Position numbers and translations under genes: made by a program
The notes under the pieces: model-generated
Seen by the model: only the letters and a program-made list of their open reading frames with translations
What the model was told of the DNA's origin: nothing
The model's database searches: none
Assembly: GCA_001785355.1 (NCBI GenBank)
Contig: MFTQ01000004.1
Coordinates: 3,612-67,611, forward strand
DNA length: 64,000 bases
Source: Candidatus Nomurabacteria bacterium RIFCSPHIGHO2_01_FULL_41_71
GTDB taxonomy: Bacteria > Patescibacteriota > Minisyncoccia > Phycocordibacterales > UBA9973
Reading direction: 5' to 3'
In this document: positions 14,089-29,300 of the stretch, piece after piece
Position numbering within the stretch: the stretch's first letter is position 1
Layout of the letters: each line of letters starts with the position of its first letter

Positions 14089-14159
14089 GGGTGGTTAGTT
14101 AAGTGGCATAACTGCGGTCTCCAAAACCGCCGTCGGGGGTTCGATTCCCTCACCACCCG
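14089..14159 (+). tRNA. tRNA-Trp (anticodon CCA)
   Basis: The acceptor stem GGGTGGT pairs with ACCACCC. The anticodon stem GCGGT/ACCGC carries the loop CTCCAAA, and the T-loop is GGTTCGATTCC. No CCA is encoded. Confidence 0.8.
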
Positions 14160-14166
14160 CACGTTG

Positions 14167-14183
14167 AAATCAGCTGATTTTTT
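14167..14183 (+). terminator. weak hairpin plus T-run after tRNA-Trp
   Basis: AAATCAGCTGATTT palindrome followed by TTTTT. The stem is AT-rich. Confidence 0.3.
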
Positions 14184-14303
14184 ATGGGTTATTTTTTGAC
14201 GCTCTGAAAGGGAATGGAACTTTGTCTAGTATGTTAACCTCAGTTCGTCTAAGATAGTCAACCATTAATGCATCATTAACAGCTAGCACGAGACACATAG
14301 AAG

Positions 14304-14312
14304 TGCTAAAAT
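14304..14312 (+). promoter_or_regulatory. extended -10 (TGCTAAAAT) six nt upstream of the giant-ORF ATG, possibly leaderless
   Basis: The same TGCTAAAAT motif heads both 116-bp repeats at 18733 and 19843. Confidence 0.3.
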
Positions 14313-14318
14313 CTATAA

Positions 14319-17300
14319 ATGAAAATGGAGTCGCCAGTTTTTACAGAAAGGTCTAAAAGGTCAAAAGAACCTTTGGAACCACACGATATTCCCTCGGCTA
14401 TGAGCCAGATTAAAGAGGGACAAGAACAAACTCCTGACCAAGAAAGAATCTTGATTGATATACAAACCTATCTTGATGCAGCTCATGATATTTTTGAAGA
14501 TATAGAAACTAAAAGACCAATATTACCAGACTTACCCGAAAGCCCTAGCGCAGAAGTGCCGCTTGATTTCTCTGAACTTTCTCGGCAGTTGAAATCTAAA
14601 TTAGCTCAATTAGACAAAATGACTTCTAGAAGTTTTGGAGCACAACATAGGCTAAGCGAAGCTGGTCATAGAAATAGACGAAGAATAGAAAAAGTAGAAG
14701 ACCCTGTGGATGAATATTCCAAATGGTCGAGTACCTTGGAAAGTCAGTATTCAAATGTAAATTCCCAAATTAAACCTCTCGAAGCCGCATTAGTTCTACA
14801 TCGAGAATGCCAAGAATTAGGTAAAGAATATAAAACTATAATAAGCAGAAGATTTTCGGTGCCTGAGAAAGATTTAAGAAATCAGATAGATAAATTACTA
14901 GAAGAGTGCCTTTCACAAATAAGAGCTTTAGGAAGAAATCCTTTAAAATACACCGAGAAGCTAGCATTAAAAAGAAAGTGTGCTGAATTTATTGATATCA
15001 CACACAAAGTATATTTGATTGAAAATCTTTTTCCCGAAATAAGACATTCAGGATATAACTATGCTCTTAGTTGGAAAGATGGTTTAAAATATGACATATC
15101 GATACCCGTTGGCCATCTGTACGAACAAGTAGGTGTGAATTTACGTTTAAAAATCAATCAGTTAAAAACTTTAATCGCAGAAAGCAAAAAAAAAGAAACA
15201 GACGCAATTTCTCCGAAAGATTTAGCAATTCTTAAAGGAGATTTTTTTACAAAATATGTCCTTCCTCACATTTCCAATCTTCCTCCAGATATTCAAGCCG
15301 AAATATTATCCGAATATAATGAAAAAGGAACTGTTTACTTAAATCGATATGGTGTAGAAGACAGAAATGCCGCGGAAAGAATATCTTATGCTAGAATGAA
15401 TGAAAAAATAGAAGACAGTTTTAAATCGCTTGCTGATTTGCTTCGTAATGGAGATCCTGTCGGTGAAGCTTATAAATTGATTAAGCAAGAATTACCGAAG
15501 TTAATGGAAGAGCGTCCTTTGAAATATGATTTTGATGATATTTCTCGAACTCGACTTGAAAGTCCTATAATGAGAGCGGTCAAAGAATTACCTCGGCTGA
15601 AAGTTTTTATGGAAAGCCATGTGTTCCTTAATGCTACACCCGAAGAGCGAGAGAGGTTTCTAGAAAATGCCAGAAGTTTGATAAGTGAATATCTAAGTCA
15701 AGGAAAAATTATTGAGCCTACATCTCTAGCGGATAAATTATTATCACATCCAAACCCCGCAATCGCTCTAGAAATCATAGATTCTAGCTCCAATGAAAGC
15801 CGTAGTAGAAGCAACGAAGCAATACTTTTTATTTTTCAGCTTTTTCGGGAAAGTTCGGTAGAATCTGAAAGAAGTATTTTATCGAATATGCTTCATCGGT
15901 TCACCAATGACATAACTACCTATCAAGATCAGATTGTTGAAATCTTGCCCAGCCAAAGTAAAAGTATATATATTTTAGGCAGAGAGCTACTAATGAAACT
16001 GGCCACTCAAAATATGCCTATACCGCCTTTGTTATGGGAGCGAATGGAATCATATTTGGAAGATACGGTTGAACATATGGAAAAGGAAAAGGATTATAAG
16101 ATTCTAGTTCCTATTCTTAACGAAATCGCCAACGGAAGTGAAGCAGGTAATAGATATTTTGCCAACGAAGCGCTCATGTTGGCTATATATAGACATTTAG
16201 GTAAGGCTAATTTTATGCTTCCTGACGGATTGTTATTCATTAAAGATTCTAAAAACATCAATCTTATTATCGAGGGTTATAGAAAATATTTTGGTATGCA
16301 AAGCATCGATTTACCAGATAGCGAAAAATTCCAACTTGCTTTTCAAAAAGGATTGACCATTACTCAGCTATTTTCTCATTATGACAATGATGTAGAGAGT
16401 TTCTTTGACGATAAATTATTTCAAAAACTTTATGAATATCCGGAACTTGAGAAGCTTCTGACTGATCTTATTAGTCGCATTCAAACATTAAGCGATAGAA
16501 CTATTATTTCTCGAATTTTTTATTCTGTTCTACCATTCCTTCTAGAGACAGCATTCGCCGTCGATTCCAAAGAAGGTGAAACCGAATTTACGGCTCGTCT
16601 GAATAGAATATCAGAGTATTATGAAAAAGTTCTAGAAAAAACTAAGGAAGAAAAAAGTGCTCTTCAATTTTACTTGGGCGATAGTGCTTGGGAAGTAATA
16701 AAATTTCATCCACATCCAACCGATCTTCTTCTAGAATTTCCCGAACAAGCTCCGCTTTTATTTAAGGAAGAGCAAAGAGGACTTCAGAATCTCATATCTT
16801 CGAATTTTAATGTGCTTATAAAGGATAAGACGGATATGATTTTTCTAAATCAACTTGTTGGTAGATTTGGAGGAAATGCTCCCCAGCTAATAACAGACTA
16901 TCTTCAATGTTTAAAAGAAGGCGCGCTCACATTGGACGAAAAAGGATTAGTCGAAGAATTTCTTGGAAAATTTAGAGTTCTTTCGCCTGCCATTATAAAT
17001 GGTTATCGAGAAGCAAAAGCATCGCATACAGAGGAAGTTTTCATTGCTGGTTTAGAATCGATTGCCGAGCATGCTACTGGGCAAGGTAATCCAACTGAAA
17101 CACAACGACAGTCTCCATTTTATAAAGATGTTTTAAGGGCCATTTATCAAAACAATTCCGGACAATGGACTACTTTCGAGAAGAATGAGAGCTGTAAAGA
17201 CAGGTCAGCGGATTTACAAGGCTTCAAAATAAAAGAACGTTATGAAATCGATCTTCTGGCGGCTGGAGATATTAAAATGAAGCCAGGAGCAGAATTAGAT

Positions 17301-18521
17301 CGGAAAGGAATGGCGCAACTTGAAGAAGGAGTTACTTATATAGCAGACGAATTTAAGGCAGCTAATTTTGATCCGGAAATAGTTAAGAAAAAGGTCAATG
17401 ACCGTATCGAAGAAGTCTTCAATTTATTTACTGGAAGCGAAGTATTAAAAGATCTTGATGTAACGTCACTGACGCTTGAGCAAAAATTATTTATTATTTT
17501 ATCAGAAACAACTTACGGAACACCTCCAATTGAACCCAGAGAAGTTAAAAAACTTCTTTTTGAATACGAATTTGCTAACTTCGAAGATATTCGGGAATAC
17601 ATTCAAGGTACAAACGATAGAGTAGCAACTGCTCAAAATCGAGATTATGCTCTCTTGTGCGAATTCCATAGTCTTTTTGCCGACAGAATCAAAGAAATCA
17701 ACCGCCGACTGATTACGGCCGGATGGGAAAATACCGAGATTGCTAAAAAAATGCCGGCATATTTTGCGCAATTATCAAAAAAACGTGGAGACGCCGCAAG
17801 GGTAGAAAAAATAAATAAATTACAAATTGGAAAACTCGGCTTGAATGATACATTTTTGAAACAAATGAAAAGAGTGTTGAATAAAAAAGCAGGCACCAAT
17901 TATTCTGACGAACAAGTACGGCAAATTATTGCTAGATATGAAAGAATGACATCTGGATTGACAGAAACTAGTACATCTACCAAAGGAAGAACTCGCGAAT
18001 TTGCCGGTCAATTACGCGGGCAAAAAGAGAAAACCAGAAAAGCATTAGAGTTACTAGACGGCAAAAAACTAAATCCGGAAGAATTCCGTTTGGGCCATTT
18101 AGATTTCAATCAATATCTTGATGCCGAAAATGCAATTGGAAAAGGAACGTACAACGATGAACAATTTGCTTCATACACACTTCAACAATTTATCGGTATT
18201 TTTACCGAAGAACGAGAATTTGTTGAGGGAGAACTTGATAAATTTATGACTTCTTCCGGGAAAAATCGAGCGCGGCTTAGTGGTTACATTTCCAAATCTC
18301 CTGAGACTGCTCACGCCCGTATGGTTGGTGGAGTATGCGTTTCCGGAGATAATCCAAATCGAGGAGAAAAAAACATGTGGGATATGGAAAATTATTTTCA
18401 GTTAGTTCTTCAAGATCCAGAAACTAAACGCTGCCAGGGTATAGTATTGCTCCATCATTTCGAAGAGAACGGCCAGAAAATTTTAACTGCAGCTTTTAAT
18501 CCCTATGGCAAATGGATTTGA
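14319..18521 (+). CDS. 1400-aa orphan hypothetical protein, probably cytoplasmic
   Basis: One uninterrupted ORF. By eye it has no signal peptide or TM segment and no Walker A or HExxH motif. The sequence is rich in helix-favouring and acidic residues. Confidence 0.7.
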   Translation: MKMESPVFTERSKRSKEPLEPHDIPSAMSQIKEGQEQTPDQERILIDIQTYLDAAHDIFEDIETKRPILPDLPESPSAEVPLDFSELSRQLKSKLAQLDKMTSRSFGAQHRLSEAGHRNRRRIEKVEDPVDEYSKWSSTLESQYSNVNSQIKPLEAALVLHRECQELGKEYKTIISRRFSVPEKDLRNQIDKLLEECLSQIRALGRNPLKYTEKLALKRKCAEFIDITHKVYLIENLFPEIRHSGYNYALSWKDGLKYDISIPVGHLYEQVGVNLRLKINQLKTLIAESKKKETDAISPKDLAILKGDFFTKYVLPHISNLPPDIQAEILSEYNEKGTVYLNRYGVEDRNAAERISYARMNEKIEDSFKSLADLLRNGDPVGEAYKLIKQELPKLMEERPLKYDFDDISRTRLESPIMRAVKELPRLKVFMESHVFLNATPEERERFLENARSLISEYLSQGKIIEPTSLADKLLSHPNPAIALEIIDSSSNESRSRSNEAILFIFQLFRESSVESERSILSNMLHRFTNDITTYQDQIVEILPSQSKSIYILGRELLMKLATQNMPIPPLLWERMESYLEDTVEHMEKEKDYKILVPILNEIANGSEAGNRYFANEALMLAIYRHLGKANFMLPDGLLFIKDSKNINLIIEGYRKYFGMQSIDLPDSEKFQLAFQKGLTITQLFSHYDNDVESFFDDKLFQKLYEYPELEKLLTDLISRIQTLSDRTIISRIFYSVLPFLLETAFAVDSKEGETEFTARLNRISEYYEKVLEKTKEEKSALQFYLGDSAWEVIKFHPHPTDLLLEFPEQAPLLFKEEQRGLQNLISSNFNVLIKDKTDMIFLNQLVGRFGGNAPQLITDYLQCLKEGALTLDEKGLVEEFLGKFRVLSPAIINGYREAKASHTEEVFIAGLESIAEHATGQGNPTETQRQSPFYKDVLRAIYQNNSGQWTTFEKNESCKDRSADLQGFKIKERYEIDLLAAGDIKMKPGAELDRKGMAQLEEGVTYIADEFKAANFDPEIVKKKVNDRIEEVFNLFTGSEVLKDLDVTSLTLEQKLFIILSETTYGTPPIEPREVKKLLFEYEFANFEDIREYIQGTNDRVATAQNRDYALLCEFHSLFADRIKEINRRLITAGWENTEIAKKMPAYFAQLSKKRGDAARVEKINKLQIGKLGLNDTFLKQMKRVLNKKAGTNYSDEQVRQIIARYERMTSGLTETSTSTKGRTREFAGQLRGQKEKTRKALELLDGKKLNPEEFRLGHLDFNQYLDAENAIGKGTYNDEQFASYTLQQFIGIFTEEREFVEGELDKFMTSSGKNRARLSGYISKSPETAHARMVGGVCVSGDNPNRGEKNMWDMENYFQLVLQDPETKRCQGIVLLHHFEENGQKILTAAFNPYGKWI

Positions 18522-18732
18522 CCGGATAGAAGTTTCTAAAAGTAAAACAATCCGCACTAACCGGACTGGAGGAGAATTTGAACGTGAAATGGATCGACGA
18601 ATCACTGCAATTGGTGTCACTGATGCCTTTGCTGAACCTAGACAGTTCTCATTCAATCCGAACTATAATTTAAAAGACATGGACGTAATATGGGAGAAAA
18701 AAAAAGTATAGAGAATTATTTCTTTTAAAATG

Positions 18733-18848
18733 TGCTAAAATAAGGCTTGTTTATTAGATTAAGCAATCAAATTAAATCCTTCAAAAACACTATTCCACTT
18801 AAGAATCATTGTTTGTATAGTGTTCCACTCCAGGATTTGAAAGCCCGC
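18733..18848 (+). repeat. 116-bp direct repeat copy R1 (candidate structured sRNA)
   Basis: Aligns without gaps to 19843..19958 at 98/116 identity. It starts with TGCTAAAAT and contains the AACACTAT…ATAGTGTT hairpin. Confidence 0.7.
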
Positions 18849-19057
18849 ACAATTTAATTTCTTTTTCACTTTTAGTTTAGTGTTTTTGCTTTTAATATTT
18901 TCCCTTCAGAAACTTTCTAAGTTAAAAAACTTTTGAAGGGAGAGGGGTATGAACAAATCAATGCAAGAACCCCTCTTCTTATGTCTCACTACGCACGTGA
19001 GACCTGCGTCCTCATTTTTATAAAAACGGGGATAAAATTAAAGGACAGCGAAGGTCG

Positions 19058-19639
19058 CTACCACTCCGTGAACATGACCTTCCCGCCGTCATAGATAATC
19101 AGACGGCGGAAATTCATCCCAGGGATTCGGGTCAGAGCGAACTCGACATAACCCTTGTCTGCGTGATAGATGACCCCGTCTATCACTTGAGACTTCACGG
19201 CAAGGTGCGCCAAGTGCTGATGGGGTTGATTCCTGCCCTGATTCAGTGCGGGACAATCGAGAGTAACCAGGTCAATGTTCTGAATCTGGACGCCGTCAGC
19301 GCCGTGCCAGATCCCAACAATAACCCTAGTGCTATTCTGCACGTTCTGGAAGGTAAACGTGCAGAAGGGGACTTGACCATTCTCCCACAGCACTGCCGAC
19401 TTCCAGACTCCCTGGGCTCTCTTGACATCAAAATCCACCACTGGTTTTCCGTCAAGCACCTTGGGACAGGGACTCGCCATGTCAACAAGAATCCGTGCCA
19501 GATAGCGGATCGCGGGTTGGACATCCCTCTTGGCCAACCTTTCCAGCATTTCCGGACGTCCGCCCAAGGCGACGACCTCTTCCTCCAGTGCTTGCCAGAA
19601 CGACTTCCAGATGTCGCAGACGCGAATGAACTCCAACAT
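19058..19639 (-). CDS. hypothetical protein in a ~55% GC cassette
   Basis: 193-aa ORF (MLEFIRVCDIWKSFWQALEEEVVALGGRPE…). The overlapping ORFs 19163..19726(+) and 19243..19710(-) are judged GC-richness artefacts. No family was recognised. Confidence 0.4.
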   Translation of the reverse strand: MLEFIRVCDIWKSFWQALEEEVVALGGRPEMLERLAKRDVQPAIRYLARILVDMASPCPKVLDGKPVVDFDVKRAQGVWKSAVLWENGQVPFCTFTFQNVQNSTRVIVGIWHGADGVQIQNIDLVTLDCPALNQGRNQPHQHLAHLAVKSQVIDGVIYHADKGYVEFALTRIPGMNFRRLIIYDGGKVMFTEW

Positions 19640-19842
19640 ATGTCCCCCGTTACGCGGCTGTGCCCTATGGTCTGGCTTAATTGCCAGAGCTGTGAGCTGT
19701 ACCGCCGCATTCGAGCATTACTTTAACATACCTTTCAAATAAATCAAGGCCATAAGGTAATGTGAAAGCGGGCTTTCCATTTTTACTTTCTGTTCTATGA
19801 CTCAATAGTTAACCCCTTTAATTTTTAAAGGTAATTAAAGTA

Positions 19843-19958
19843 TGCTAAAATAAGGCTGGTTTATTAGATTAATTTACCAGATTAAAACCCTGGAAAACAC
19901 TATTCCATTTTATAACCATATTTTCTATAGTGTTCCAGTCCAGGATTTGAAAGCCCGC
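19843..19958 (+). repeat. 116-bp direct repeat copy R2
   Basis: 84% identical to R1. Substitutions at positions 48, 50, 51 and 96 create a CTGG/CCAG helix that R1 lacks. Confidence 0.7.
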
Positions 19959-20018
19959 TTTGAGTGGAAATAGGCTTTTCAAGAAACTTGAATGGGTATA
20001 TACTTATGACGTAACTTT

Positions 20019-20411
20019 ATGAAATACGTTTTCACCACAATTTTAATTTTTAGCTTTATCGGCATAGCTGTGTTCGGTTTGTTACAGTTTAGTCATGCCA
20101 GTCACACACCCGAGGCGCCGATGATAAATTGTCCCTACGCAGAGAATAGTTACTCAATCTGCCAAAGTAGTCTTGATCATATCAAAAACTGGCGTCAATT
20201 TTCGAATGTGATTATTCCATCGCTATCCATTTTCTCACTTCTGGTTTTAGGAATAGTCTTGTATCTATTCGGTAAACAGAATCTTTTAAAACAAAACCAG
20301 TATTTTTATAAATGGAAATATTTTTTATACGATCAAAAGTTACATACCTACAAAGAAAGAATAATCAAATGGCTAGCACTTTTTGAAAATAGCCCCTCTC
20401 TTTCATATTAA
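20019..20411 (+). CDS. hypothetical small membrane protein
   Basis: 130 aa with two hydrophobic helices and two Cys in the extracytoplasmic loop. Confidence 0.4.
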   Translation: MKYVFTTILIFSFIGIAVFGLLQFSHASHTPEAPMINCPYAENSYSICQSSLDHIKNWRQFSNVIIPSLSIFSLLVLGIVLYLFGKQNLLKQNQYFYKWKYFLYDQKLHTYKERIIKWLALFENSPSLSY

Positions 20412-20492
20412 GACATAGCTCTGAATTTTGTCGTAAAATTTTTAGTTATGTCTTTTAAGTCCTTCACAAGAGGATTTTTACTATTGTAAATT

Positions 20493-21071
20493 ATGGAAAA
20501 AAATATGAAAGACAAAAATAAAATTATCGCATTCATCGTTATAATAGCAATTCTTATCATTGGGCTTTTCTTTTTTGGAAAGCCTGGTAAAGATGAAGGT
20601 GTTGCAACCAGCGCTAAAGGAATTCCAGAAGGCGCTCAAGAATTAGTAAACTCACATACAGCAGGAACAGAAGATATAACTACAAGTATTTTGACTGCCC
20701 CAGAAACATTCTATGACTTCGGCACTATCTCTATGAAGAATGGCAATGTAAGTAAAGTATTTAAAGTAACTAACTTCACAACTCAAGATATAAAAGTACC
20801 AAGTTTAACCACTTCTTGTATGTGCACCACTGCGTACATCATAAAATCAGATGGAAGTAGAAGTAGACCTTTTGGTATGCCTGGTCACGGCGGGGCAGTT
20901 CCCAAGGCCAACGCTATCGTAGGAGCCGGTGGATCACTCGACATTGAAGTTGTCTTTGATCCGAATGCTCACGGTCCGGCCGGAGTCGGACTTATTGAGC
21001 GCGTCGTTTTTCTGGAAGACGAGAACAAAAATACAGTCGAGCTCAAGTTTAGAGCTAACGTAACTCCATAA
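20493..21071 (+). CDS. DUF1573-like membrane-anchored protein
   Basis: An N-terminal TM anchor, then FYDFGTISMKNGNVSKVFKVTN…SCMCTT…PGHGG. This resembles the DUF1573 S-C-x-C-T core. Confidence 0.5.
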   Translation: MEKNMKDKNKIIAFIVIIAILIIGLFFFGKPGKDEGVATSAKGIPEGAQELVNSHTAGTEDITTSILTAPETFYDFGTISMKNGNVSKVFKVTNFTTQDIKVPSLTTSCMCTTAYIIKSDGSRSRPFGMPGHGGAVPKANAIVGAGGSLDIEVVFDPNAHGPAGVGLIERVVFLEDENKNTVELKFRANVTP

Positions 21072-21076
21072 ATAAT

Positions 21077-21859
21077 ATGAAAAAATTCATTATTACAATT
21101 AGCATTATTATTATTATTGTTATAGTTGGATTAGTTGTGCTAAAAAATAGTTCAATTATTTCATCAATAATCTGGAGTTTGAGTAGAGAAGGTACTTGGC
21201 TTCTGCCCCTTGTCCTTATTGCCGCCATCCTAGATAGCGTGCATCCCTGCTCATTCTCAATTCTTCTTATAACCATTGCATTTCTTTTTGGTATGCAAGT
21301 AAGTCGAAAAAAAATCCTTCAACTAGGTGGGACATATGTAGTTGGTATATTCATGGCATATTTCCTAATTGGGCTTGGAATACTAAAAGTACTGCATCTC
21401 TTCAATACCCCCCATTTTATGGGGAAATTGGGGGCGACGGTTCTTATTATCTTTGGTGTGTTAAATCTTCTTAATCGTTTCTTTCCGGCATTTCCGATCA
21501 AACTCAAAATTCCAGGAGTAGCTCATTCAGCTATGAGTAAGTTCATGGATAAAGCGTCGTTTCTTGCTGTATTTATCCTTGGAATACTTGTTGGTATTTG
21601 CCAATTCCCATGTATGGGTGGACCATACCTTATGGTTATCGGACTCTTGCGCGATCAAATGACATATATGAGCGGATTCAATTATCTTTTGCTCTATAAC
21701 TTCATTCTGATTATTCCCTTGGTTGCGATTTTGTTCATATCAGCAAACAAATTATTGGTTGACAAAATGCAGATATGGAAGCGTGACAATATAGACGAAG
21801 TCCGACTTTGGGCGGGAATTGCCATGATTATTATTGGAATCTTAATTTTCTTTATTTAA
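21077..21859 (+). CDS. DsbD/CcdA-family thiol-disulfide transmembrane protein-like
   Basis: A polytopic membrane protein. It has a conserved LDSVHPCSFSILL helix and a second Cys-bearing helix, GICQFPCMGGPY. Confidence 0.45.
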   Translation: MKKFIITISIIIIIVIVGLVVLKNSSIISSIIWSLSREGTWLLPLVLIAAILDSVHPCSFSILLITIAFLFGMQVSRKKILQLGGTYVVGIFMAYFLIGLGILKVLHLFNTPHFMGKLGATVLIIFGVLNLLNRFFPAFPIKLKIPGVAHSAMSKFMDKASFLAVFILGILVGICQFPCMGGPYLMVIGLLRDQMTYMSGFNYLLLYNFILIIPLVAILFISANKLLVDKMQIWKRDNIDEVRLWAGIAMIIIGILIFFI

Positions 21860-21861
21860 TT

Positions 21862-22173
21862 ATGATTATTCCCATAATATCTATTTTTCTCTTGACTCTA
21901 AGCGTATGGGTAATTAATAAAAAATTGCCTATACAAATCTGTTCTATTTGCGCTGGGGTAACACTCACGTGGCTTTGGATGCTTGGAGGGATGTGGTTGG
22001 GGTTTATTTCTGTTTCTCGTTATGAGTTTCCAGTTGCAATCTTGATGGGCGCTACAATCGGGGGCATCGTGACAGAACTCAAAAAAATGTTCTTGAAATT
22101 CAGAAACAAAAATGAGTTAAAAGAAAATAAAGAAGTCGAATCATTAGAAGATAAGTTAAAAAATTGTTGCTGA
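21862..22173 (+). CDS. small membrane protein with a CxxC motif at a TM boundary
   Basis: MIIPIISIFLL…LPIQICSICAGVTLTWLWM and a C-terminal CC. An internal ATG is used to avoid overlap with the upstream gene. Confidence 0.4.
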   Translation: MIIPIISIFLLTLSVWVINKKLPIQICSICAGVTLTWLWMLGGMWLGFISVSRYEFPVAILMGATIGGIVTELKKMFLKFRNKNELKENKEVESLEDKLKNCC

Positions 22174-22174
22174 A

Positions 22175-22981
22175 ATGAAAAATAGAATAAAAGAAATATT
22201 ATATGGATTTTTAGTTATTTTTGTGATTTTGGTTTTGGGTTTTACTCCAGTTGCCCAAAAAGAATTATTTTCTTTGGATTGGAAAAACTTTGGCTTACAA
22301 ATGGTCGAAGCTGGAGTAATTGATCAAACAAAGTTTGAAAATCTCTATACCCAAAGAGGCGGACTGAGCGAAGCTGATAAAAAATTGCTTTACGGAGCTG
22401 ATAATAAAAATCTTGTAATTAATTCTGAAAACTCAGGAGTAGTGTTAAATATGCTTTGGGCTTTTGGGCTAGCTAATAAGAATCCGATTCTAGAAAATGG
22501 TTCGATAATGGACCCTAAATATGGAGGTGCGGGAAATTTCGCATCTACGGGCGGATGGACATTGGCCAAAGGAAATGCAATGGATCACTACAGTATGCAT
22601 TCGTTTGTGACACTTACACCAGAACAGCAAGCACTCGTCGAAAGGGTTTCAAAAGGAATATTTAGACCATGTTGCAACAATTCGACTTATTTTCCGGATT
22701 GTAATCACGGCATGGCTATGCTGGGATTACTAGAACTTATGGCTTCACAAGGAGCAACTGAAGCAGATATGTATAAAATTACCTTAGAGGTAAATACACT
22801 GTGGTTTCCAGATACATACGAAGCAATTAAAACCTTTGTCACATCTCAAGGTATTGATTGGAACACCATTGACCCAAAAAAAATCCTAGGAGCTGATTAT
22901 TCGAGTGTGTCGGGGTATCAAAAGATATTATCACAAATAAAACCACAGGAACAAAAGGGAGGAGCAAGCTGTGGAGCTTAA
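22175..22981 (+). CDS. membrane-anchored Cys-rich hypothetical protein
   Basis: An N-terminal TM anchor and the cluster RPCCNNSTYFPDCNHGM. Confidence 0.45.
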   Translation: MKNRIKEILYGFLVIFVILVLGFTPVAQKELFSLDWKNFGLQMVEAGVIDQTKFENLYTQRGGLSEADKKLLYGADNKNLVINSENSGVVLNMLWAFGLANKNPILENGSIMDPKYGGAGNFASTGGWTLAKGNAMDHYSMHSFVTLTPEQQALVERVSKGIFRPCCNNSTYFPDCNHGMAMLGLLELMASQGATEADMYKITLEVNTLWFPDTYEAIKTFVTSQGIDWNTIDPKKILGADYSSVSGYQKILSQIKPQEQKGGASCGA

Positions 22982-23002
22982 AAGATTAATTAAAAAATCA
23001 TT

Positions 23003-23533
23003 ATGAAAACAGAACACAAAGTATTTATAGGAATTGGATTATTAACATTAGTTATTATCGTGGGTGGCACATTGTTGTCTACCAAAGGGGGATTAAAAAA
23101 ACAAGAAGAACTTAGCAAGACCATGATGGGAGAAAAGATTGCTGATTTAGGCGCAGCGCATGTTGCAAAAAATGCGCCACATTCGGGATATAATTCAAAT
23201 CCTCCGACTTCCGGACCACATTGGACTGGCGTGGCGGGAGCCGGAATTAAAGACGAGCCTGTTCCCGACGAACTTGTGCTTCATAGTATGGAGCATGGCG
23301 CAGCGGTTGTGTGGTATAGGGAGGATTTAGCACAAAGTGATGTAGATATAATTAGGAGCGCATTTCAAAGTGCATCCGGGAAAAAAATAATGTTGCCACG
23401 TAAAGATCTAGATGTTCCAGTCGCTCTTACATCATGGGGTTACCTTCTTGAACTTGATACGATTGATGGTGAAAAAATTAAAAAATTCATAGAAACCAAT
23501 AACGATAGGGCCCCAGAGAAAGCGCCTATTTAA
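23003..23533 (+). CDS. DUF3105-like membrane-anchored protein
   Basis: NPPTSGPHW and HSMEHGAAVVWY motifs after an N-terminal TM segment. Confidence 0.5.
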   Translation: MKTEHKVFIGIGLLTLVIIVGGTLLSTKGGLKKQEELSKTMMGEKIADLGAAHVAKNAPHSGYNSNPPTSGPHWTGVAGAGIKDEPVPDELVLHSMEHGAAVVWYREDLAQSDVDIIRSAFQSASGKKIMLPRKDLDVPVALTSWGYLLELDTIDGEKIKKFIETNNDRAPEKAPI

Positions 23534-23559
23534 GGAATTGGTTATCCACAGCTCTTGAT

Positions 23560-23597
23560 TTGACAATAGGATATAGGGGTATATACTACTATAGTAG
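23560..23597 (+). promoter_or_regulatory. promoter TTGACA-16-TATACT with a CTACTATAGTAG palindrome over the -10/TSS (candidate CsoR operator)
   Basis: The -35 box is at 23560-23565 and the -10 box at 23582-23587. The 12-bp perfect palindrome is at 23586-23597, and csoR starts 31 nt downstream. Confidence 0.35.
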
Positions 23598-23627
23598 GTC
23601 GAGATTAATAACTAATTTATATAAATT

Positions 23628-23900
23628 ATGTTAGATCAAAAATTAAAAAAGAGAGCATTACATCGGGCTAAAATAATTCGTGGTCAGATAGATGGTCTAG
23701 TTAAAGCAATTGAGGTAGAAAAATATTGTGTTGATCTCATTACACAATCTCGGTCAATTCAACTGTCATTAAAAAGTATGGATAGGTTACTTTTGGCTAA
23801 CCATCTTCAGGGACATGTAAAGCATATGCTCAATGACACAAAACAAGAACATAAAGTCATTAAAGAACTCGTGGATCTGTATGCATTATCAAATAAATAA
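23628..23900 (+). CDS. CsoR/RcnR/FrmR-family metal-sensing transcriptional repressor
   Basis: 90 aa. LHRAKIIRGQIDGLVKAIEVEKYCVDLITQSRSIQ…ANHLQGHV shows the DUF156 fold signature with Cys and His ligand positions. Confidence 0.65.
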   Translation: MLDQKLKKRALHRAKIIRGQIDGLVKAIEVEKYCVDLITQSRSIQLSLKSMDRLLLANHLQGHVKHMLNDTKQEHKVIKELVDLYALSNK

Positions 23901-23905
23901 AATTT

Positions 23906-24157
23906 ATGAATACTACACGTGCCATTAAAATAGGATTAGCTTGGATAAACATCACATATATATTATGTTATGTCATTTGGGGATTATTGCCTATAGCCCG
24001 ACCATCAGTTCTTCCATATATTTTGCATCTTAATGTGGGTCCTGTAGAAACTATCTTTACCTTCGGTAATTTCATTGGTGGACTGGTTCTTTGGAATGTG
24101 ATTACGGGAGCTGGTATTTGGTTTGTTGGTTTTCTTGCTAAATATATTAAAAATTAA
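23906..24157 (+). CDS. hypothetical small membrane protein
   Basis: 83 aa and very hydrophobic. Confidence 0.4.
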   Translation: MNTTRAIKIGLAWINITYILCYVIWGLLPIARPSVLPYILHLNVGPVETIFTFGNFIGGLVLWNVITGAGIWFVGFLAKYIKN

Positions 24158-24171
24158 TTACAAAAATTGAT

Positions 24172-24417
24172 ATGATGTACGGATATAATAACTATGGTGA
24201 TTGGGGTGCTGGTAGTATGGTAGGTTGGTTTGGTGGTGGATTTATGATGTTTTTTTTCTGGGCTCTGATTATTATCTTCATTGTTTGGGTTGTGCGTGAA
24301 GTTGGCAGTAAAAATTCAAAATCAGGATCAAATGCTCTTGATATTTTAAAAGAACGATATGCAAAAGGTGAGATTGATAAAAAAGAGTTCGAGGAAAAGA
24401 AAAAAGATTTAATTTAG
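24172..24417 (+). CDS. SHOCT-domain membrane protein
   Basis: A TM helix, then LDILKERYAKGEIDKKEFEEKKKDL. This is the SHOCT short C-terminal motif. Confidence 0.6.
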   Translation: MMYGYNNYGDWGAGSMVGWFGGGFMMFFFWALIIIFIVWVVREVGSKNSKSGSNALDILKERYAKGEIDKKEFEEKKKDLI

Positions 24418-24431
24418 TAAAATAAAATTCT

Positions 24432-24755
24432 ATGAAACTAGGTATTATTTTACAATCAAATAAACCAGAACACATATGGAATACATTTCGTCTTGGCATT
24501 ACTACACTTAAAGCTGGGCATCAAGCGGAAGTTTTTTTAATGAACGAAGGTTCAGAATTAGACTCTATTCCTGACACCAAAGATTTTGATATTTCTGCAA
24601 GAGTGGCTGAATTCAAAAACCTAAAAGGTAATGTTTATGTTTGTGGCACTTGTATAAAATTACGGGGAAAAGAAAGCAACATATGTCCAGTTTCCACGAT
24701 GTCGGACTTACTTAAAATGGTTGAAAGTTCAGATAAAGTTTTAGTTTTTGGTTAA
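24432..24755 (+). CDS. DsrE/DsrF-like family protein
   Basis: 107 aa. ILQSNKPEH…VCGTC with a conserved Cys is typical of DsrE-like proteins. Confidence 0.5.
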   Translation: MKLGIILQSNKPEHIWNTFRLGITTLKAGHQAEVFLMNEGSELDSIPDTKDFDISARVAEFKNLKGNVYVCGTCIKLRGKESNICPVSTMSDLLKMVESSDKVLVFG

Positions 24756-24813
24756 AATTAGCATTTAATAAAAATAATTCTTAATTTTGGCATCTTAAAA
24801 AATCTTTAAAGAT

Positions 24814-27051
24814 ATGAAAAATAATTACCAAGATCATAAGGAAACAGAAGAAATAATATATACCTGCCCAATGCACCCGGAAGTAATCAAGAACATTCCT
24901 GGCTCATGCCCAAAGTGTGGCATGAGACTTGTGAAGACTGAAGCAAAAACACGCAATAGTGATCATGCTGGTCATGTAATGGGTGATCCATCAAAAATGG
25001 GTTTCTGGGAGAAATTTAAAATGAGCATGTCGATGACAATGGGTATGGATCATACAGGACTTGCCGGTCGGGAAATGGCGCGTCTCATGGAGATAGATAT
25101 TCGGAATAAATTCTTCTTCACGCTTATTCTTACAATTCCTATTATTTTGTATTCACCTCTAGGCACGGAGTTTCTGAAAATTAATCTTCCTTTCCCAATA
25201 CCACTTCCCTGGCTCCTCTTTATTTTAACAACACCGGTATTTTTCTATTCTGGTTGGATTTTTCTATATTCAACATACTTTGCTCTCAAAAGTAAGGTGC
25301 TCAATATGGCGGTGCTCATTGCCGTCGGTATTACCGCGGCTTATGGCTTCAGCATTTTATTAACCCTGATCGGTAGTGCCGATTCATATTACGAAGCGGC
25401 CGCTATGCTTATTACTTTTGTCTTGTTTGGTCACTGGATGGAGATGAAATCTCGTCGCGGAACAACCGACGCTCTCCAAGCACTTTTCAATCTCGTCCCG
25501 CCTCAAGCCAGAATTTTTAAAGATGGGAAGGAAGTAATGGTTTCCACTTCAGATATACAACTTGGCGACATTATTATATTGAAGCCGGGAGACAAGGTTC
25601 CTGTCGATGGAGAAATTACCGAAGGGGAAACCGCCATAGATGAATCTTTGGTTACTGGGGAATCAATTCCTACTTCAAAAAAGATTGGGGATCAAGTAAT
25701 TGGCGGATCAATCAACACTGCCGGATCGGTGAAATTTAAGGCGACAAAAGTCGGCAAAGACACCGCTCTTGCACGAATTGTGGCGATGGTTGAAGAAGCG
25801 CAGAATTCAAAAGCCCCTGGACAAAGAATTGCTGATCAGTTTGCAAAATATTTAGTTATTGGGGCAGTCGGATCTGGTCTTTTAGTTTTTGGTGTTTGGT
25901 ATTTTATTATGGGGGTACCGATTATTCTAGCACTCTCCTTTGCGATCGCTACGGTTGTCATTGCCTGTCCCGATGCGTTAGGACTTGCTACACCGACTGC
26001 TGTGGCTGTCGGCACAGGCCTCGGAGCAAAACATAATATTCTTATAAAAGATGCACCAACTCTTGAACAAGTTTCAAAAATCCAAGCCATTGTGCTCGAT
26101 AAAACAGGAACTCTAACTGAAGGAAAGCCGAAAATAATAGATGTTGCTACCGTAGATGGTTTTGATGCAAGCGAAGCACTTCGTCTAGTCGGTGCGGCTG
26201 AAGCTAAGTCATCCCACCCTTTGGCTGGTGCGGTACTCAATGAACTTAAAAAACGTGGCCTTACATTGCCAGAGTCGGTTGATAAATTTGAAAATCTTTC
26301 TGGCTTGGGGGTGAAAGCTATCGTAGATGGAAAACAAGTTCTGATAGGTACAGTGAAGCTCATGAAAGAAAACAACATTGTTCTCGGGGCATTAAAGAAA
26401 CAAATAAATGAGTTTCTGGAAAAAGGGGAAACGATCATGATTCTTGCGGTTGACGGCGCTGTCAAAGCTGTAATCGGTGCGGCTGATCCAATAAAACCTA
26501 CCGCTGTAAAAACGGTTGAACGATTGAAGGCTTTGGGTATTGAAATTGCCATGATCACGGGCGACAATAAAATGACCGCAGAAAAAGTAGCCAGTCAAAT
26601 TGGCATCGAAAGAGTGTTTGCTGAAGTAATGCCTGCAGACAAAGCAAGCTATGTAAAAAAGTTACAACAGGAAGGAAAATTCACGGCCATGGTCGGAGAT
26701 GGAGTTAACGACGCACCCGCGCTCGCTCAATCTGATGTGGGCATTGCCATTGGTGCAGGCACGGACGTAGCTATAGAGACCGCAAAAGTCGTGTTGATGA
26801 AATCTGACCCGTTAGATATACTGCGAGCAATAACCTTGAGCAAGGCAACAGTTCGCAAAATGAAACAAAATCTTTTCTGGGCTTCAATTTATAATGTTCT
26901 AGCGATACCAGTTGCCGGTGGAATTCTGTATCCTAGCTTCGGTATTATGCTTCGTCCGGAATTTGCGGCACTCCTTATGAGTATTTCTTCAATAATCGTT
27001 GCAACAAATGCAGTATTATTAAAAAGAGTCGAGAAAGATTTAGTAGTATAA
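24814..27051 (+). CDS. copA: copper-translocating P1B-type ATPase
   Basis: N-terminal TCPMHPEV…CPKCGM metal-binding domain and a Met-rich MSMSMTMGM stretch. The other motifs are TGES, DKTGTLT and GDGVNDAPAL. The TM6 motif reads CPD where CPC is usual. Confidence 0.9.
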   Translation: MKNNYQDHKETEEIIYTCPMHPEVIKNIPGSCPKCGMRLVKTEAKTRNSDHAGHVMGDPSKMGFWEKFKMSMSMTMGMDHTGLAGREMARLMEIDIRNKFFFTLILTIPIILYSPLGTEFLKINLPFPIPLPWLLFILTTPVFFYSGWIFLYSTYFALKSKVLNMAVLIAVGITAAYGFSILLTLIGSADSYYEAAAMLITFVLFGHWMEMKSRRGTTDALQALFNLVPPQARIFKDGKEVMVSTSDIQLGDIIILKPGDKVPVDGEITEGETAIDESLVTGESIPTSKKIGDQVIGGSINTAGSVKFKATKVGKDTALARIVAMVEEAQNSKAPGQRIADQFAKYLVIGAVGSGLLVFGVWYFIMGVPIILALSFAIATVVIACPDALGLATPTAVAVGTGLGAKHNILIKDAPTLEQVSKIQAIVLDKTGTLTEGKPKIIDVATVDGFDASEALRLVGAAEAKSSHPLAGAVLNELKKRGLTLPESVDKFENLSGLGVKAIVDGKQVLIGTVKLMKENNIVLGALKKQINEFLEKGETIMILAVDGAVKAVIGAADPIKPTAVKTVERLKALGIEIAMITGDNKMTAEKVASQIGIERVFAEVMPADKASYVKKLQQEGKFTAMVGDGVNDAPALAQSDVGIAIGAGTDVAIETAKVVLMKSDPLDILRAITLSKATVRKMKQNLFWASIYNVLAIPVAGGILYPSFGIMLRPEFAALLMSISSIIVATNAVLLKRVEKDLVV

Positions 27052-27888
27052 AGTTTTTTTAAAATAAATTTTTTTAGACGCATCAAACCATTTGATATCT
27101 TTATCGCGTTTAAACCAGGTCATCTGACGCTTGGCATATTTGATAGTTTCCGTTATTACTTTTTCAGGAGTTGGATGAAAATATTCAAAGCCAAGTTCTC
27201 GTAGTCTATTTTCCGAAACGCCCGATTTCTTTAACTTTTCGATTTCTTTTAAAAGTCCCGTTTTAAACATTTTTTTTACACGTTTTTCCACCTTCTCTTT
27301 TAATTTTTCTGGAGGCAGATATAATCCAATTTTGATAAATTTATAACTTAGTACTCCGAGTACTAAGTGGGGGACTTTACCTAAGGCTTTGGCTATTTCA
27401 ATTGCCCTGATCAATCTGACTTTATTTTTTGGATCTATATTTTTTGCTCTATTTTTGTCTAACTTTATCAATATACGAAATAATACGGTCGCACTTTTTT
27501 GTGCCAATTTGCGGCGTAATTTTTTATCAAGAGGAACTGAGGGAAATTTTAATCCTTTTGTTACCGCATCGATATAGAATCCGGTACCACCGCAGATGAT
27601 CGGAATTTTACCTCGGCTGACAATCTCCGCCATAGCGGAGATTGTCAGCTTTTGATATTTTTCAACTGAAAATTTATTTTTCGGACTAATCACATTTAAC
27701 AAATGATGGGGTGTCCCCATCATTTGTTTTTTGGTAATTTTACCGGTACCAATATCGAGCCCCTTATAGACTTGTCTCGAATCGGCCGAAATTATTTCGC
27801 CACCGATTTTTCCGGCAATTTTCACCGCTAAATCACTTTTACCAGTGGCGGTTTGGCCTAAAATGACGATTACTTTCGGTTTTTTCAT
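27040..27888 (-). CDS. miaA: tRNA dimethylallyltransferase
   Basis: P-loop ILGQTATGKS and ADSRQVYKGLDIGT. It carries the 23-bp palindrome in-frame. Confidence 0.85.
   Translation of the reverse strand: MKKPKVIVILGQTATGKSDLAVKIAGKIGGEIISADSRQVYKGLDIGTGKITKKQMMGTPHHLLNVISPKNKFSVEKYQKLTISAMAEIVSRGKIPIICGGTGFYIDAVTKGLKFPSVPLDKKLRRKLAQKSATVLFRILIKLDKNRAKNIDPKNKVRLIRAIEIAKALGKVPHLVLGVLSYKFIKIGLYLPPEKLKEKVEKRVKKMFKTGLLKEIEKLKKSGVSENRLRELGFEYFHPTPEKVITETIKYAKRQMTWFKRDKDIKWFDASKKIYFKKTLYY
27346..27368. repeat. 23-bp perfect palindrome, copy 2, in-frame within miaA (encodes HLVLGVLS)
   Basis: Identical to 882..904. Translated on the minus strand in the miaA frame: CCC CAC TTA GTA CTC GGA GTA CTA AGT. 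Confidence 0.85.
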
Positions 27889-27890
27889 TT

Positions 27891-29216
27891 TTAAATCCTC
27901 TTTATATCCGCGCCCAAGGCATTTAATTTTTCAACTATATTTTCATAACCGCGATCAATATGATTTGCAGGGTCGTTGATTATGCTTTTTCCTGGAGCTA
28001 GTAAACTGGCTAACAGCATATCTATACCGGCTCTTACGTCATGAGAATTCAATTCCGCAGACTGGAGTTTTGTCGGACCAAAGACATTGGCGCCGTAAGT
28101 TTCCTTGGCATTGTATTCCGAATCATTGAAATTATAAAATTTTGCGCCATAACCTTTAGGATGGAATAAATCATGCTTTAGGCCCATTTTTTGCAATTCG
28201 GCCAGATATCTCCATCTGGTTTCGAAAATTCTTTCATGAATCGTTGATTTACCTTTTGCCATATATGCAAGCAACAAAGTCATAAGCGGCTGCCAATCAG
28301 TCATAAAACCCGGATACCAATCGGTAATTATTTCCGTCGGTTTCAATGGTTTGTTGATTTTATTTATTTTTGCGGTATTTTTTTTAAAACCAATTTCAAC
28401 CCCGATTTTTTTTAAAGTTTCTATTAATGGTTCCAGAAGTTCCCTGGAAACGTTTTTAACAGTTATATTTCCACCGGTCATTATTGAAAGAATGATGGCT
28501 GTGGCCGCTTCAAGCCGGTCATAAATTGAATATGCATTTACTCCGCGCAAGAGGGGCGTCACTCCTATTATTTCAATAGTTCTCTGCTCGATTCTTTTTA
28601 TTTTCGCTCCCATATCATTCAGACAATTTATTAAATTATCAACTTCCGGCTCCGCCGCCGCATTTTTTAAAATTACTTTTCCTTCATTGAACACCGATGC
28701 CAAAATTAAATTTTCTGTTCCGGAATGGGTATTTTTTTCAAACGTATATATTGTTGATTTTGGTCTTTTTGGCATTGATATTTCTATTTTATTGTCATGT
28801 TCTAAAACTTTACCCCCCAGCGCTTTTATGCCTTCTAGGTGCCTGTTGAGCGGTCTTTTGCCGATGGCGTCTCCTCTGATGGGGTAGAAGATGACTTTAC
28901 CGGTTCTCGCCAGCGTCGCTCCAATAAAAAGCACCGATTGTCGCGCGGTCATTGCTTCAAGCGGAATTTCTGAAGAATTAATTTCTAAACTTTCAACTTC
29001 TATTATATTTTTATCCAAAAAACGCACTTTGCATCCGAGTGAAGTAAGCGCATCAATGGCTCTATAGGTATCCGAAATTCTCGGAATATTATGGAAAATA
29101 CATTTTTCTTTAGAAAGCAACGCTGTGATAGGCAGTTTTGGACCCGCATTTTTTGCCCCAGAAACAACGTATGTTCCCTTCAATGGTTTTCCACCCCATA
29201 CAATAAATTTACTCAT
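27891..29216 (-). CDS. murA: UDP-N-acetylglucosamine 1-carboxyvinyltransferase
   Basis: MSKFIVWGGKPLKGTYVVSGAKNAGPKLPITALL… The upstream 26 codons of the track ORF (MAELVDAHDSKS…) are the antisense translation of tRNA-Leu, so the start is set at the internal ATG. Confidence 0.85.
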   Translation of the reverse strand: MSKFIVWGGKPLKGTYVVSGAKNAGPKLPITALLSKEKCIFHNIPRISDTYRAIDALTSLGCKVRFLDKNIIEVESLEINSSEIPLEAMTARQSVLFIGATLARTGKVIFYPIRGDAIGKRPLNRHLEGIKALGGKVLEHDNKIEISMPKRPKSTIYTFEKNTHSGTENLILASVFNEGKVILKNAAAEPEVDNLINCLNDMGAKIKRIEQRTIEIIGVTPLLRGVNAYSIYDRLEAATAIILSIMTGGNITVKNVSRELLEPLIETLKKIGVEIGFKKNTAKINKINKPLKPTEIITDWYPGFMTDWQPLMTLLLAYMAKGKSTIHERIFETRWRYLAELQKMGLKHDLFHPKGYGAKFYNFNDSEYNAKETYGANVFGPTKLQSAELNSHDVRAGIDMLLASLLAPGKSIINDPANHIDRGYENIVEKLNALGADIKRI

Positions 29217-29218
29217 AG

Positions 29219-29300
29219 TGCCGGAGGAGAGAATCGAACTCTCACCCCTTGCGAGACACGATTTTGAGTCGTGCGCGTCTACCAATTCCGCCACTCCGGC
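29219..29300 (-). tRNA. tRNA-Leu (anticodon CAA)
   Basis: Minus-strand sequence GCCGGAGTGGCGGAATTGGTAGACGC…CTCAAAA…long variable arm…GGTTCGATTCTCTCCTCCGGCA. The anticodon stem is CACGA/TCGTG. Confidence 0.8.

Follow-up and report, generated by a model that had tools for sequence, protein, structure and literature searches.

In the CsoR-copZA and CsoR-copA operons of Mycobacterium tuberculosis, Bacillus subtilis, and Corynebacterium glutamicum, a repressor of the PF02583 family lies beside a P1B-type ATPase, and a GC-tract box with AT inverted repeats overlaps the promoter. We find the same features in a 64,000-nt stretch of DNA (the window) from the genome of a tiny groundwater member of the Patescibacteria, Candidatus Nomurabacteria bacterium RIFCSPHIGHO2_01_FULL_41_71 (contig MFTQ01000004.1, positions 3,612 to 67,611), where eleven genes, g1 to g11, make up the module described here (Table 1). 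The ligand set of its repressor, x-C-H-H, has a precedent in the CsoR of Thermus thermophilus, which it matches (PMC11672702). The module departs from the CsoR operons in that it has no CopZ chaperone, its pump carries a CPD motif where theirs have CPC, its subclade has a G-G tract (ATAGG…GGGGTAT) in place of a C/G palindrome in the CsoR box, and it adds six thiol/His envelope genes.

A DsbD-superfamily membrane protein beside exported Cys proteins, with a link to copper tolerance, is the common theme of the Scs (ScsABCD), CcdA-ResA, and CcdA/TlpA-Sco systems. Relatives of the module likewise have a true DsbD_TM protein and a TlpA-like Redoxin beside g5. The window itself, however, shows no thioredoxin-fold CxxC protein in Pfam and NCBIfam scans; the partners here are DUF1573, g1, g4, g5, and DUF3105, the host is one of the Patescibacteria, and the module is connected with a P1B pump and with CsoR. 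By analogy, the module may work like Scs, but it is not a member of that system, as it does not have the ScsB-type DsbD together with ScsC. In the copB-copL pair of Staphylococcus aureus, a single-membrane cell, a P1B pump that is not of the CPC type is joined by a copper-handling protein anchored in the membrane and exposed at the surface. The same pairing of pump and surface protein recurs in the window, although CopL belongs to an unrelated family and copB-copL has no CcdA-like component. MerT and MerF hand soft metals from thiol to thiol by means of two Cys in a hydrophobic segment and a vicinal CC at the C-terminus; g4 shows the same Cys pattern, but no homology to them is detectable, and the window has no MerA or MerR. 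The regulator-pump pair is a variant of CsoR-CopA and the redox-copper logic resembles that of Scs and CcdA-TlpA-Sco, while the protein families (g1, g4, g5, DUF1573, and DUF3105) differ. No description of the module was found in the searchable literature.

Gene content and conservation of the module

We read the locus as a two-operon copper-defence module typical of Patescibacteria, in which CsoR controls Cu(I) efflux and this efflux is coupled to a relay of exofacial thiols that a CcdA-like protein feeds, and we put the probability of this reading at roughly 55%. An earlier note, made from the letters of the window, had proposed that a copper pump is coupled here to Cys-motif envelope proteins and is no lone copA; this is upheld, by evidence that is comparative. 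All eleven same-strand open reading frames (ORFs) that it placed between 20019 and 27051 were confirmed in an ORF check of the window, with the starts of g2 and g4 corrected from gene calls in identical strains, and the convergent miaA is also where it had been placed, overlapping the stop of g11 by 12 nt. The intergenic gaps within 20019-23533 and within 23628-27051 range from 1 to about 90 nt, and g6 and g7 are separated by 94 nt. Pfam and NCBIfam scans agreed with the assignments of DUF1573, DUF3105, the CsoR family, SHOCT, DsrE, and the P1B ATPase, and the Cys motifs that had been singled out (SCMCT, CxxC, and PCCN…DCNHG) are present and conserved in relatives. Neither database gave a family match for g1, g4, or g5, sequence searches of the PDB returned no relative of g2, g3, g5, or g6, and Rfam had no match in 18400-27300.

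For the comparison across genomes, we anchored the search on g5. At least 581 genome stretches encode a g5 relative, of which 80 were fetched and two more added, and these 82 loci, many of which end at contig ends, were searched with the eleven proteins of the window. Our analysis showed a P1B ATPase in 63 of them and a CsoR in 47, and the ATPase lies within 10 kb in 32 of the 33 loci from other Patescibacteria in which g5 is flanked by 7 kb or more on each side. Among the envelope genes, g1 occurs in 40 of the 82 loci, every time at the head of g2-g3, DUF1573 (g2) in 52, a g3-type protein in 42, g4 in 25 (mostly flanked by g3 and g5), and DUF3105 (g6) in 16. This co-occurrence is far beyond chance. 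The commonest order, on one strand, is csoR-ATPase-g1-g2-g3-(g4)-g5-(g6), which repeats across Patescibacteria; the linkage was seen in Nomura-, Jorgensen-, Yanofsky-, Colwell-, Giovannoni-, Uhr-, and Woykebacteria, among others, as well as in Burkholderia. In about 25 loci the thiol genes stand directly behind the CsoR promoter (csoR-ATPase-g1-g2-g3-(g4)-g5), which supports the reading given above. The order in the window, g1-g6 and then csoR through to the ATPase, is a permutation that it has in common with two relatives, L001 and L004. One could take the two promoters in this genome, the first of which has no full CsoR box, as a sign that g1-g6 and the csoR-ATPase operon are mere neighbours without functional coupling, but the linkage is kept across many Patescibacteria lineages and in Burkholderia, and we regard such chance adjacency as highly improbable.

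Genes that the window's proteins did not recognise were scanned with Pfam over 3.5 kb upstream and 2.5 kb downstream of g5. Upstream, we found DsbD_TM in 18 ORFs and AhpC-TSA/TlpA-like Redoxin in 11, along with DUF302, DSBA/Thioredoxin_4, DUF411 (the CopG family), Sco (three loci), and VKOR. Downstream, there were DsbD_2 (14), HMA (12; same gene set), Cupredoxin_1 (10), DUF5676, DUF302, and DUF305. Loci without g3 have a genuine DsbD_TM protein upstream of g5, often together with a TlpA-like Redoxin, as in the order DsbD_TM-Redoxin-x-g5 of L001, which supports a redox role. Together, the neighbour and linkage counts indicate that g5 nearly always has a copper pump and a membrane protein of the DsbD superfamily as neighbours.

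Plasmids of Burkholderia and Paraburkholderia also encode homologues of g5, at 35-38% identity, that retain RPCCDNSTxFQDCNHG and carry twin-arginine (Tat-type RR) signals. In B. contaminans, the order is cueR-…-DUF2933-CcdA-peroxiredoxin-thioredoxin-ICMT-peroxiredoxin-P-type ATPase-g5 homologue-SAM methyltransferase-cytochrome c-TlpA, in keeping with a coupling of copper efflux to thiol chemistry, and plasmids of B. thailandensis and P. fungorum show a similar theme. This related cluster is clearly accessory. Across the plasmids, the clusters hold CueR or another heavy-metal-responsive regulator, CcdA, TlpA or a peroxiredoxin, ICMT, a P-type ATPase, a SAM (S-adenosylmethionine) methyltransferase, DUF411, and DUF2933. 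On the P. fungorum plasmid, three DsrE genes follow a CPC-type P-type ATPase, echoing g10 of the window. No homologue was found in phage records.

Table 1. Features of the module and its surroundings. Positions are those of the window, except for the plasmid loci; TM, transmembrane segment.
Feature	Coordinates	Strand	Description
g1	20019..20411	+	130-aa two-TM protein; exofacial loop with conserved C38, C48, H54
g2	20505..21071	+	188 aa, membrane-anchored DUF1573 (Ig-like)
g3	21077..21859	+	multi-TM protein, DsbD/CcdA-LysE superfamily
g4	21862..22173	+	103-aa membrane protein; conserved iCxiCAGV in hydrophobic segment and C-terminal CC
g5	22175..22981	+	268-aa anchored exofacial protein; module-defining
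g6	23003..23533	+	anchored DUF3105 protein, Cys-less
g7	23628..23900	+	CsoR-family repressor, x-C34-H59-H63, single Cys
g8	23906..24157	+	83-aa two-TM protein, weakly DUF5676-like
g9	24172..24417	+	81-aa single-TM protein, C-terminal SHOCT
g10	24432..24755	+	107-aa cytoplasmic DsrE-like protein (VCGTC…CP)
g11	24814..27051	+	P1B-type ATPase, 745 aa (Pfam)
Putative g1-g6 promoter TTTTCA-17-TATACT	19976..20004	+	from promoter scan
csoR-ATPase promoter TTGACA-16-TATACT	23560..23587	+	11/12 consensus positions
Probable CsoR operator ATAGGATATAGGGGTATAT	23566..23584	+	fills -35/-10 spacer
Palindrome CTACTATAGTAG	23586..23597	+	CsoR site proposed in the earlier note
TTATCCACA box	23542..23550	+	identical to DnaA-box consensus; just 5' of -35 hexamer
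Strain-specific insertion, 5,793 bp	14161..19953		at tRNA-Trp 3' end; left boundary of module, outside it
Plasmid g5 homologues	L100 9001-9696, L101 9001-9699, L102 10001-10696		Burkholderia and Paraburkholderia

The CsoR-family regulator and its promoter

The match of g7 to PF02583 (Trns_repr_metal, CsoR/RcnR) has an E value of 6e-17 (62.2 bits, cut-off 22.8), so that the family named in the earlier note for this repressor stands, while its ligand set is C34-H59-H63, or C-H-H, and not the x-C-H-C of canonical CsoR. The second-shell residues Y33 and E80 align with Y35 and E81 of the M. tuberculosis protein in an alignment with reference sequences. RcnR sensors have an H-C-H-H fingerprint that includes His3 and the N-terminal amine, and g7 fits it poorly: its N-terminus is MLDQK, without His3, and it scored 24.8 bits against the NCBIfam RcnR cut-off of 138. 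Persulfide sensing of the CstR type, which the DsrE neighbour had brought to mind, was ruled out by the single Cys of g7, as against x-C-x-C.

The csoR-ATPase promoter is the best promoter-like site that a promoter scan found in 18500-27500. Its spacer reads ATAGGATATAGGGGTA, and between its -35 and -10 elements sits a G-tract box, ATAGGATATAGGGGTAT, which has the layout of a GC-tract operator with AT inverted repeats overlapping its own promoter. At this position, the closest relatives have ATAGGGGGT(G/A)GGGGTAT and most other csoR promoters ATACCCC-N2-4-GGGGTAT, which matches the published CsoR box ATACCCCnnnGGGGTAT (PMC5057107). Since a box occupies the equivalent promoter position in 40-odd csoR homologues, a finding that favours CsoR control, the G-tract box is likely, from its sequence and placement, to be the operator of g7. 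The palindrome CTACTATAGTAG, which the earlier note had suggested as the CsoR site, does not occur in L001, L004, or L053, the closest relatives, where the G-tract box is conserved instead. It occurs once in the window and is one of 24 perfect 12-nt palindromes there; on these two grounds it was dropped as a candidate, and it is probably not the operator.

At the g1 promoter, by contrast with the full CsoR box that relatives have at this place, only the right half, GGGTATATACTTATG (19994-20008), is retained, and the two relatives that share the window's gene order (L001 and L004) have a second full CsoR box, TACCC..GGGTA, 35 nt upstream of g1. We did not accept the half box as proof of CsoR control, because GGGTATAWW is enriched at other promoters, such as that of mreB (6466). 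This motif occurs seven times in the window against 1.6 expected, including copies at 6460-6473, 19994-20002, and 23577-23585. In at least three promoters, those of mreB, g1, and csoR, it lies in the -10 region, and it may be a G-rich extended -10 context of this organism.

A further element near these promoters is TTATCCACA. Of 59 CsoR boxes, 12 have an exact copy upstream at a distance of 60 nt or less, where 0.12 would be expected, and 26 have one when a single mismatch is tolerated, where 1.1 would be expected. It stands 13-21 nt 5' of the CsoR box in the window and in L004, L006, L011, L025, L028, L049, L053, L059, L061, and others, and the remaining exact copies in the loci also fall where the DNA is AT-rich and promoter-like. 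A second regulator may bind there, or the box may be a Patescibacteria promoter element.

The P1B-type pump and its metal

The closest solved relative of g11 is the Legionella CopA (LpCopA, 3rfu; E 3e-167), which supports the assignment as a copper pump. Like CopA, g11 has NX6YNX4P in TM7 (NLFWASIYNVLAIP) and MSISS in TM8, together with DKTGT, TGES, and GDGVND, and its N-terminus is an HMBD (CPMH…CPKCGM) followed by a Met-rich linker. Its TM4, however, carries the rare motif CPD (VIACPDALGLATP) instead of the CPC of CopA, so that of the earlier label “CopA” the P1B family and the nearness to LpCopA hold and the motif does not. The CopB (P1B-3) type does not fit either, as that type has CPH, MSxST, and a His-rich N-terminus where g11 has CPD, MSISS, and an HMBD with a Met-rich stretch. 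CPD is conserved in a clade of ten related loci, which is about 41% identical to the CPH and CPC groups alike. The pumps of the other g5 loci are CPC with HMA (30), CPH with HMBD (14), or CPH without a recognisable N-terminal domain (3). A P1B-3 “CPD” subtype has been reported as novel in Rhizobiales (PMC5552934); g11 shares with it the CPD of TM4, YN(X)4P, MSxSS, and few N-terminal His, but differs by its zinc-ribbon-like HMBD N-terminus, as in LpCopA. We found no characterised CPD pump in the searched literature.

C-H-C sensors go with CPC pumps in 17 of 17 cases, while C-H-H sensors go with CPH (7), CPD (6), or CPC (7), giving a Fisher p of 2e-5 that is uncorrected for phylogeny. This split could mean that the C-H-H sensor and the CPD pump define a specificity other than Cu(I), for another soft or borderline metal (Ag, Zn, Cd, Co, Ni, or Hg) or for several. 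C-H-H is also the pattern of RcnR (Ni/Co), the C-H-H CsoR of T. thermophilus responds to multiple metals in vitro (PMC5057107, PMC11672702), and CPD swaps a Cu(I)-ligating Cys for a hard carboxylate. Yet the His3 and N-terminal ligand set of RcnR are absent from g7, which retains the second-shell Tyr33 and Glu80 of Cu(I) sensors, and g11 has Cu(I)-type residues in TM7 and TM8 along with the Met-rich linker. In many relatives, moreover, the same thiol genes stand behind canonical C-H-C/CPC pairs. We therefore consider a metal other than copper improbable.

The envelope proteins and a proposed thiol relay

DsbD/CcdA transporters have a six-TM core with one essential PC-motif Cys in each of TM1 and TM4. 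For g3, seven hydrophobic segments are predicted, with a PC-motif Cys in each of TM1 and TM4 as this core requires, and P57-C58 (TM1), C175, and P178-C179 (TM4) are invariant in 30 sequences. The earlier description of g3 as DsbD/CcdA-like agrees with these PC motifs, and its score against the Pfam DsbD_TM model (PF02683) was 25.0 bits, just under the gathering score of 27.1. Among 30 orthologues of g3, 16 matched SfLAP, which we take to be in the same Pfam clan as DsbD_TM, and nine matched DsbD_TM itself.

From hydropathy, charge, and conservation, the conserved Cys and His of the operon 1 proteins are predicted to lie in the membrane or to face outward. DUF1573 (PF07610) is matched by g2 at 35.8 bits (cut-off 26.1), and its conserved motifs are TSCMCT (a CxC), GMPGH, and DPxAHGPxG; selenocysteine variants of DUF1573 have been described with a UGC motif at the CxC position (PMC9312934). 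None of the 86 homologues of g4 has a Pfam domain, and all those with a source name come from metagenome-assembled genomes of Patescibacteria. The match of g6 to DUF3105 (PF11303) is strong (E 1e-26, 93.9 bits, cut-off 25), with an invariant His/Glu set of H53, H60, NPPTSGPH73, D89-E90, and H94xxE97H98. Its AlphaFold2 model has a predicted local distance difference test (pLDDT) score of 72, and the top Foldseek matches, with E values of 0.01-0.1 that are below significance, are mostly of the thioredoxin fold, suggesting a Cys-less thioredoxin-like fold with a His cluster.

The protein g5 is 100% identical to one from Nomurabacteria bacterium RIFCSPHIGHO2_02_FULL_41 and belongs to a family with more than 7,500 homologues, in 499 clusters at 50% identity. 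Its invariant features are RPCCxNxTxFPDCNHG, H142, and, within the flexible tail at the C-terminus, a Cys (GGxSCGA), and the conserved residues of g5 include C166-C167, C176, H178, and C266. Its AlphaFold2 model (pLDDT 84) is all-alpha, with a disordered C-terminal tail that bears C266. Foldseek found nothing significant for this model, the best match being the periplasmic domain of CcmH (E 2.1 over 63 columns). In some longer g5 homologues (430-550 aa; P0163, P0172, P0196, and 14 others), several TM segments at the N-terminus form a domain in which a hydrophobic stretch bears CPxC(G), analogous to g4. Homology of g4 to this domain was not accepted, as hhalign aligned 16 columns at 21% probability, and the likeness is one of analogy. 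Apart from one BNR fusion, the long homologues showed no Pfam match that would mark a domain fusion.

Gene content, motifs, and the anatomy of promoter and operator are read directly from the DNA, and the linkage from the genomes compared; from them we infer that copper governs repression and induction, in which direction the pump transports, and that electrons pass through g3, as follows. In operon 2 (23560-27051), g7 would bind the G-tract box in the -35/-10 spacer and block RNA polymerase. Cu(I) bound at C34/H59/H63 would release g7 from the promoter, which would turn on csoR, the two small membrane proteins, the DsrE-like protein, and the CPD-type ATPase, and the latter would pump Cu(I) out of the cytoplasm. 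The CcdA-like g3 would carry reducing equivalents from the cytoplasm across the membrane to the anchored g1, to the CxC of g2 (DUF1573), and above all to g5, whose CC…C-x-H site and flexible C-terminal Cys “arm” would receive them. Such a relay would keep surface thiols reduced, reverse copper-catalysed disulfides, and hold exported Cu(I) off the membrane.

The same data fit an arrangement other than the disulfide repair that the earlier note had suggested, one in which the Cys pairs of g1-g5 bind Cu(I) itself and pass it on or sequester it at the surface, and g3 is a thiol-lined conduit and no electron carrier. Such a copper-thiolate relay would keep exported copper from re-entering, and the CxxC in a TM segment and the CC of g4 resemble MerT/MerF. 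The Cys motifs are accompanied by conserved Met and His typical of Cu(I) sites (GMPGH/AHGP in g2, C-x-H in g5, C…C…H in g1), terminal Cys arms are found in g4 as in g5, the resemblance of g3 to the DsbD superfamily is loose, and the downstream neighbours in relatives are DsbD_2 (14), HMA (12), and cupredoxins. The Tat-type RR signals of the Burkholderia homologues point the same way, as such signals are common in cofactor-binding proteins. These Met- and His-decorated motifs, Cys arms, DsbD_2/HMA neighbours, and Tat targeting favour metal handling. What speaks against it is that in many loci g2-g4 are replaced, upstream of g5, by DsbD_TM and TlpA-like Redoxin, which are classic electron-transfer partners, and this recurrent replacement favours electron transfer. 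The redox relay is further supported by the paired PC motifs of g3, the selenocysteine variants of DUF1573, and the thioredoxin-like model of DUF3105. A Cu(I)-thiolate site on the outer face requires a reductant, so that the two are compatible, and both may hold; as a full replacement for disulfide repair, however, the copper-thiolate relay seems rather unlikely to us.

Copper could also be exported for use, with the pump and the exofacial proteins loading secreted cuproproteins (cupredoxins or NirK-type proteins) in the manner of CcdA/TlpA-Sco-PCuAC. Cupredoxin_1 lies downstream of g5 in ten loci and a Sco-like gene upstream in three, and in Burkholderia genes for SCO, TlpA, and c-type cytochromes neighbour the g5 homologues. 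The module in the window, however, contains no cupredoxin or Sco gene, and repression by CsoR implies that the promoter is induced when copper is in excess. The accessory genes of relatives (DUF305, DUF302, YHS, CopG/DUF411, and DUF2933) are, moreover, typical of resistance islands, and we think such delivery very unlikely. Cuproprotein maturation, another metal, and mere adjacency are all less likely than copper efflux coupled to a thiol relay.

Some of our results weigh against that preferred reading. The linkage counts are uncorrected for phylogenetic relatedness, and the combination of a C-H-H sensor with a CPD pump may not be strictly copper-specific. Judged on its sequence, g3, which falls under the DsbD_TM cut-off and has more orthologues that match SfLAP, could be a permease, and the thioredoxin-fold CxxC protein that a relay might use is the one that the scans of the window failed to find. 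The g1 promoter has a half box only, which resembles ordinary promoter context. Finally, as g5 has no recognisable fold relative, its structure cannot tell a redox site from a metal site.

Genes between csoR and the ATPase

Three small genes separate csoR from the ATPase. The score of g8 against PF18926 (DUF5676) is under the cut-off (E 5e-4), and DUF5676 proteins stand downstream of g5 in seven other loci, with a best E value of 1.4e-18. SHOCT (PF09851) is matched by g9 at 37.5 bits, and such a protein follows csoR in ten loci. The DsrE domain (PF02635) is found in g10 at 33.3 bits (cut-off 22.7); among the 82 related loci g10 has no homologue, and it looks like lineage-specific cargo of this interval. 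In the sister strain L097 (350-1339), two extra genes, one of 73 aa and one for a 249-aa short-chain dehydrogenase, lie between g8 and the SHOCT gene, and in L001 the interval holds a dozen small metal-related genes (DUF302, YHS, DUF305, DUF2933, ICMT, and others). The csoR-ATPase interval thus seems to collect cargo.

Genomic setting

The earlier note had described the module as an accessory island bounded by a repeat, R2. The repeat exists, as two direct copies of 124 nt (18725-18848 and 19835-19958) that are 84% identical, but both belong to a strain-specific insertion that follows tRNA-Trp (14089-14160) and is missing from L083, L093, and L085, whose flanks are 99.9-100% identical to the window. 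R2 thus marks the neighbouring variable element. In contigs of the same population, with flanks 99.98-100% identical to the window, from which they differ only by lacking the 5,793 bases of the insertion, the module comes directly after tRNA-Trp and before miaA-murA-parB-relA, and it is at the identical site in all sampled strains. With a GC content of 0.33-0.44 against a window range of 0.33-0.49 it is not deviant, and Pfam scans found no integrase among its genes. The comparison of strains thus rules out the module as a mobile island; in these strains it is fixed between tRNA-Trp and miaA.

The insertion itself carries ORFs of 1,400 aa (14319-18521, without a Pfam match), 68 aa, and 193 aa (19058-19639, minus strand). 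The last is GC-rich (48%), is bracketed by the R2 copies, and was found on only two contigs. Each R2 copy ends in GATTTGAAAGCCCGC, and tRNA-Trp also ends in CCCGC; the whole looks like a tandem cassette insertion at a tRNA site. On the other side of the module, the longest murA ORF (27891-29294, minus strand) starts inside tRNA-Leu (CAA; 29218-29300), so that its opening 26 codons (MAELVDAHDSKSC…) merely translate the tRNA. Probably murA truly begins at 29216 and encodes 441 aa, which is how the gene is called in a sister contig.

Implications

Patescibacteria have tiny genomes and little is known of their envelope biology, and for this reason a module that is so widely kept is probably important at the cell surface. 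The context described here yields a functional hypothesis for three unannotated families (g1, g4, and g5) as well as for DUF1573 and DUF3105, and it draws attention to the combination of C-H-H sensors with CPD or CPH pumps, which is uncharacterised. We tentatively propose, although the matter could well turn out otherwise, that g5 is the founding member of a family of exported Cys4/His proteins, widespread but unannotated, which constantly accompanies P1B copper pumps and CcdA-type membrane proteins, in Patescibacteria and on Burkholderia plasmids alike. On the same tentative footing, g5 would form with g1-g4 an unrecognised envelope arm of copper defence, and the CPD pump and C-H-H sensor would be a distinct sensor-exporter class. 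As homologues of g5 lie in CueR-ATPase-CcdA clusters on plasmids of cultivable Burkholderia, the question of what the module does is open to ordinary genetics. The main value of the finding is a well-supported functional context for the large, unannotated g5 family, together with a tractable route to it in Burkholderia.

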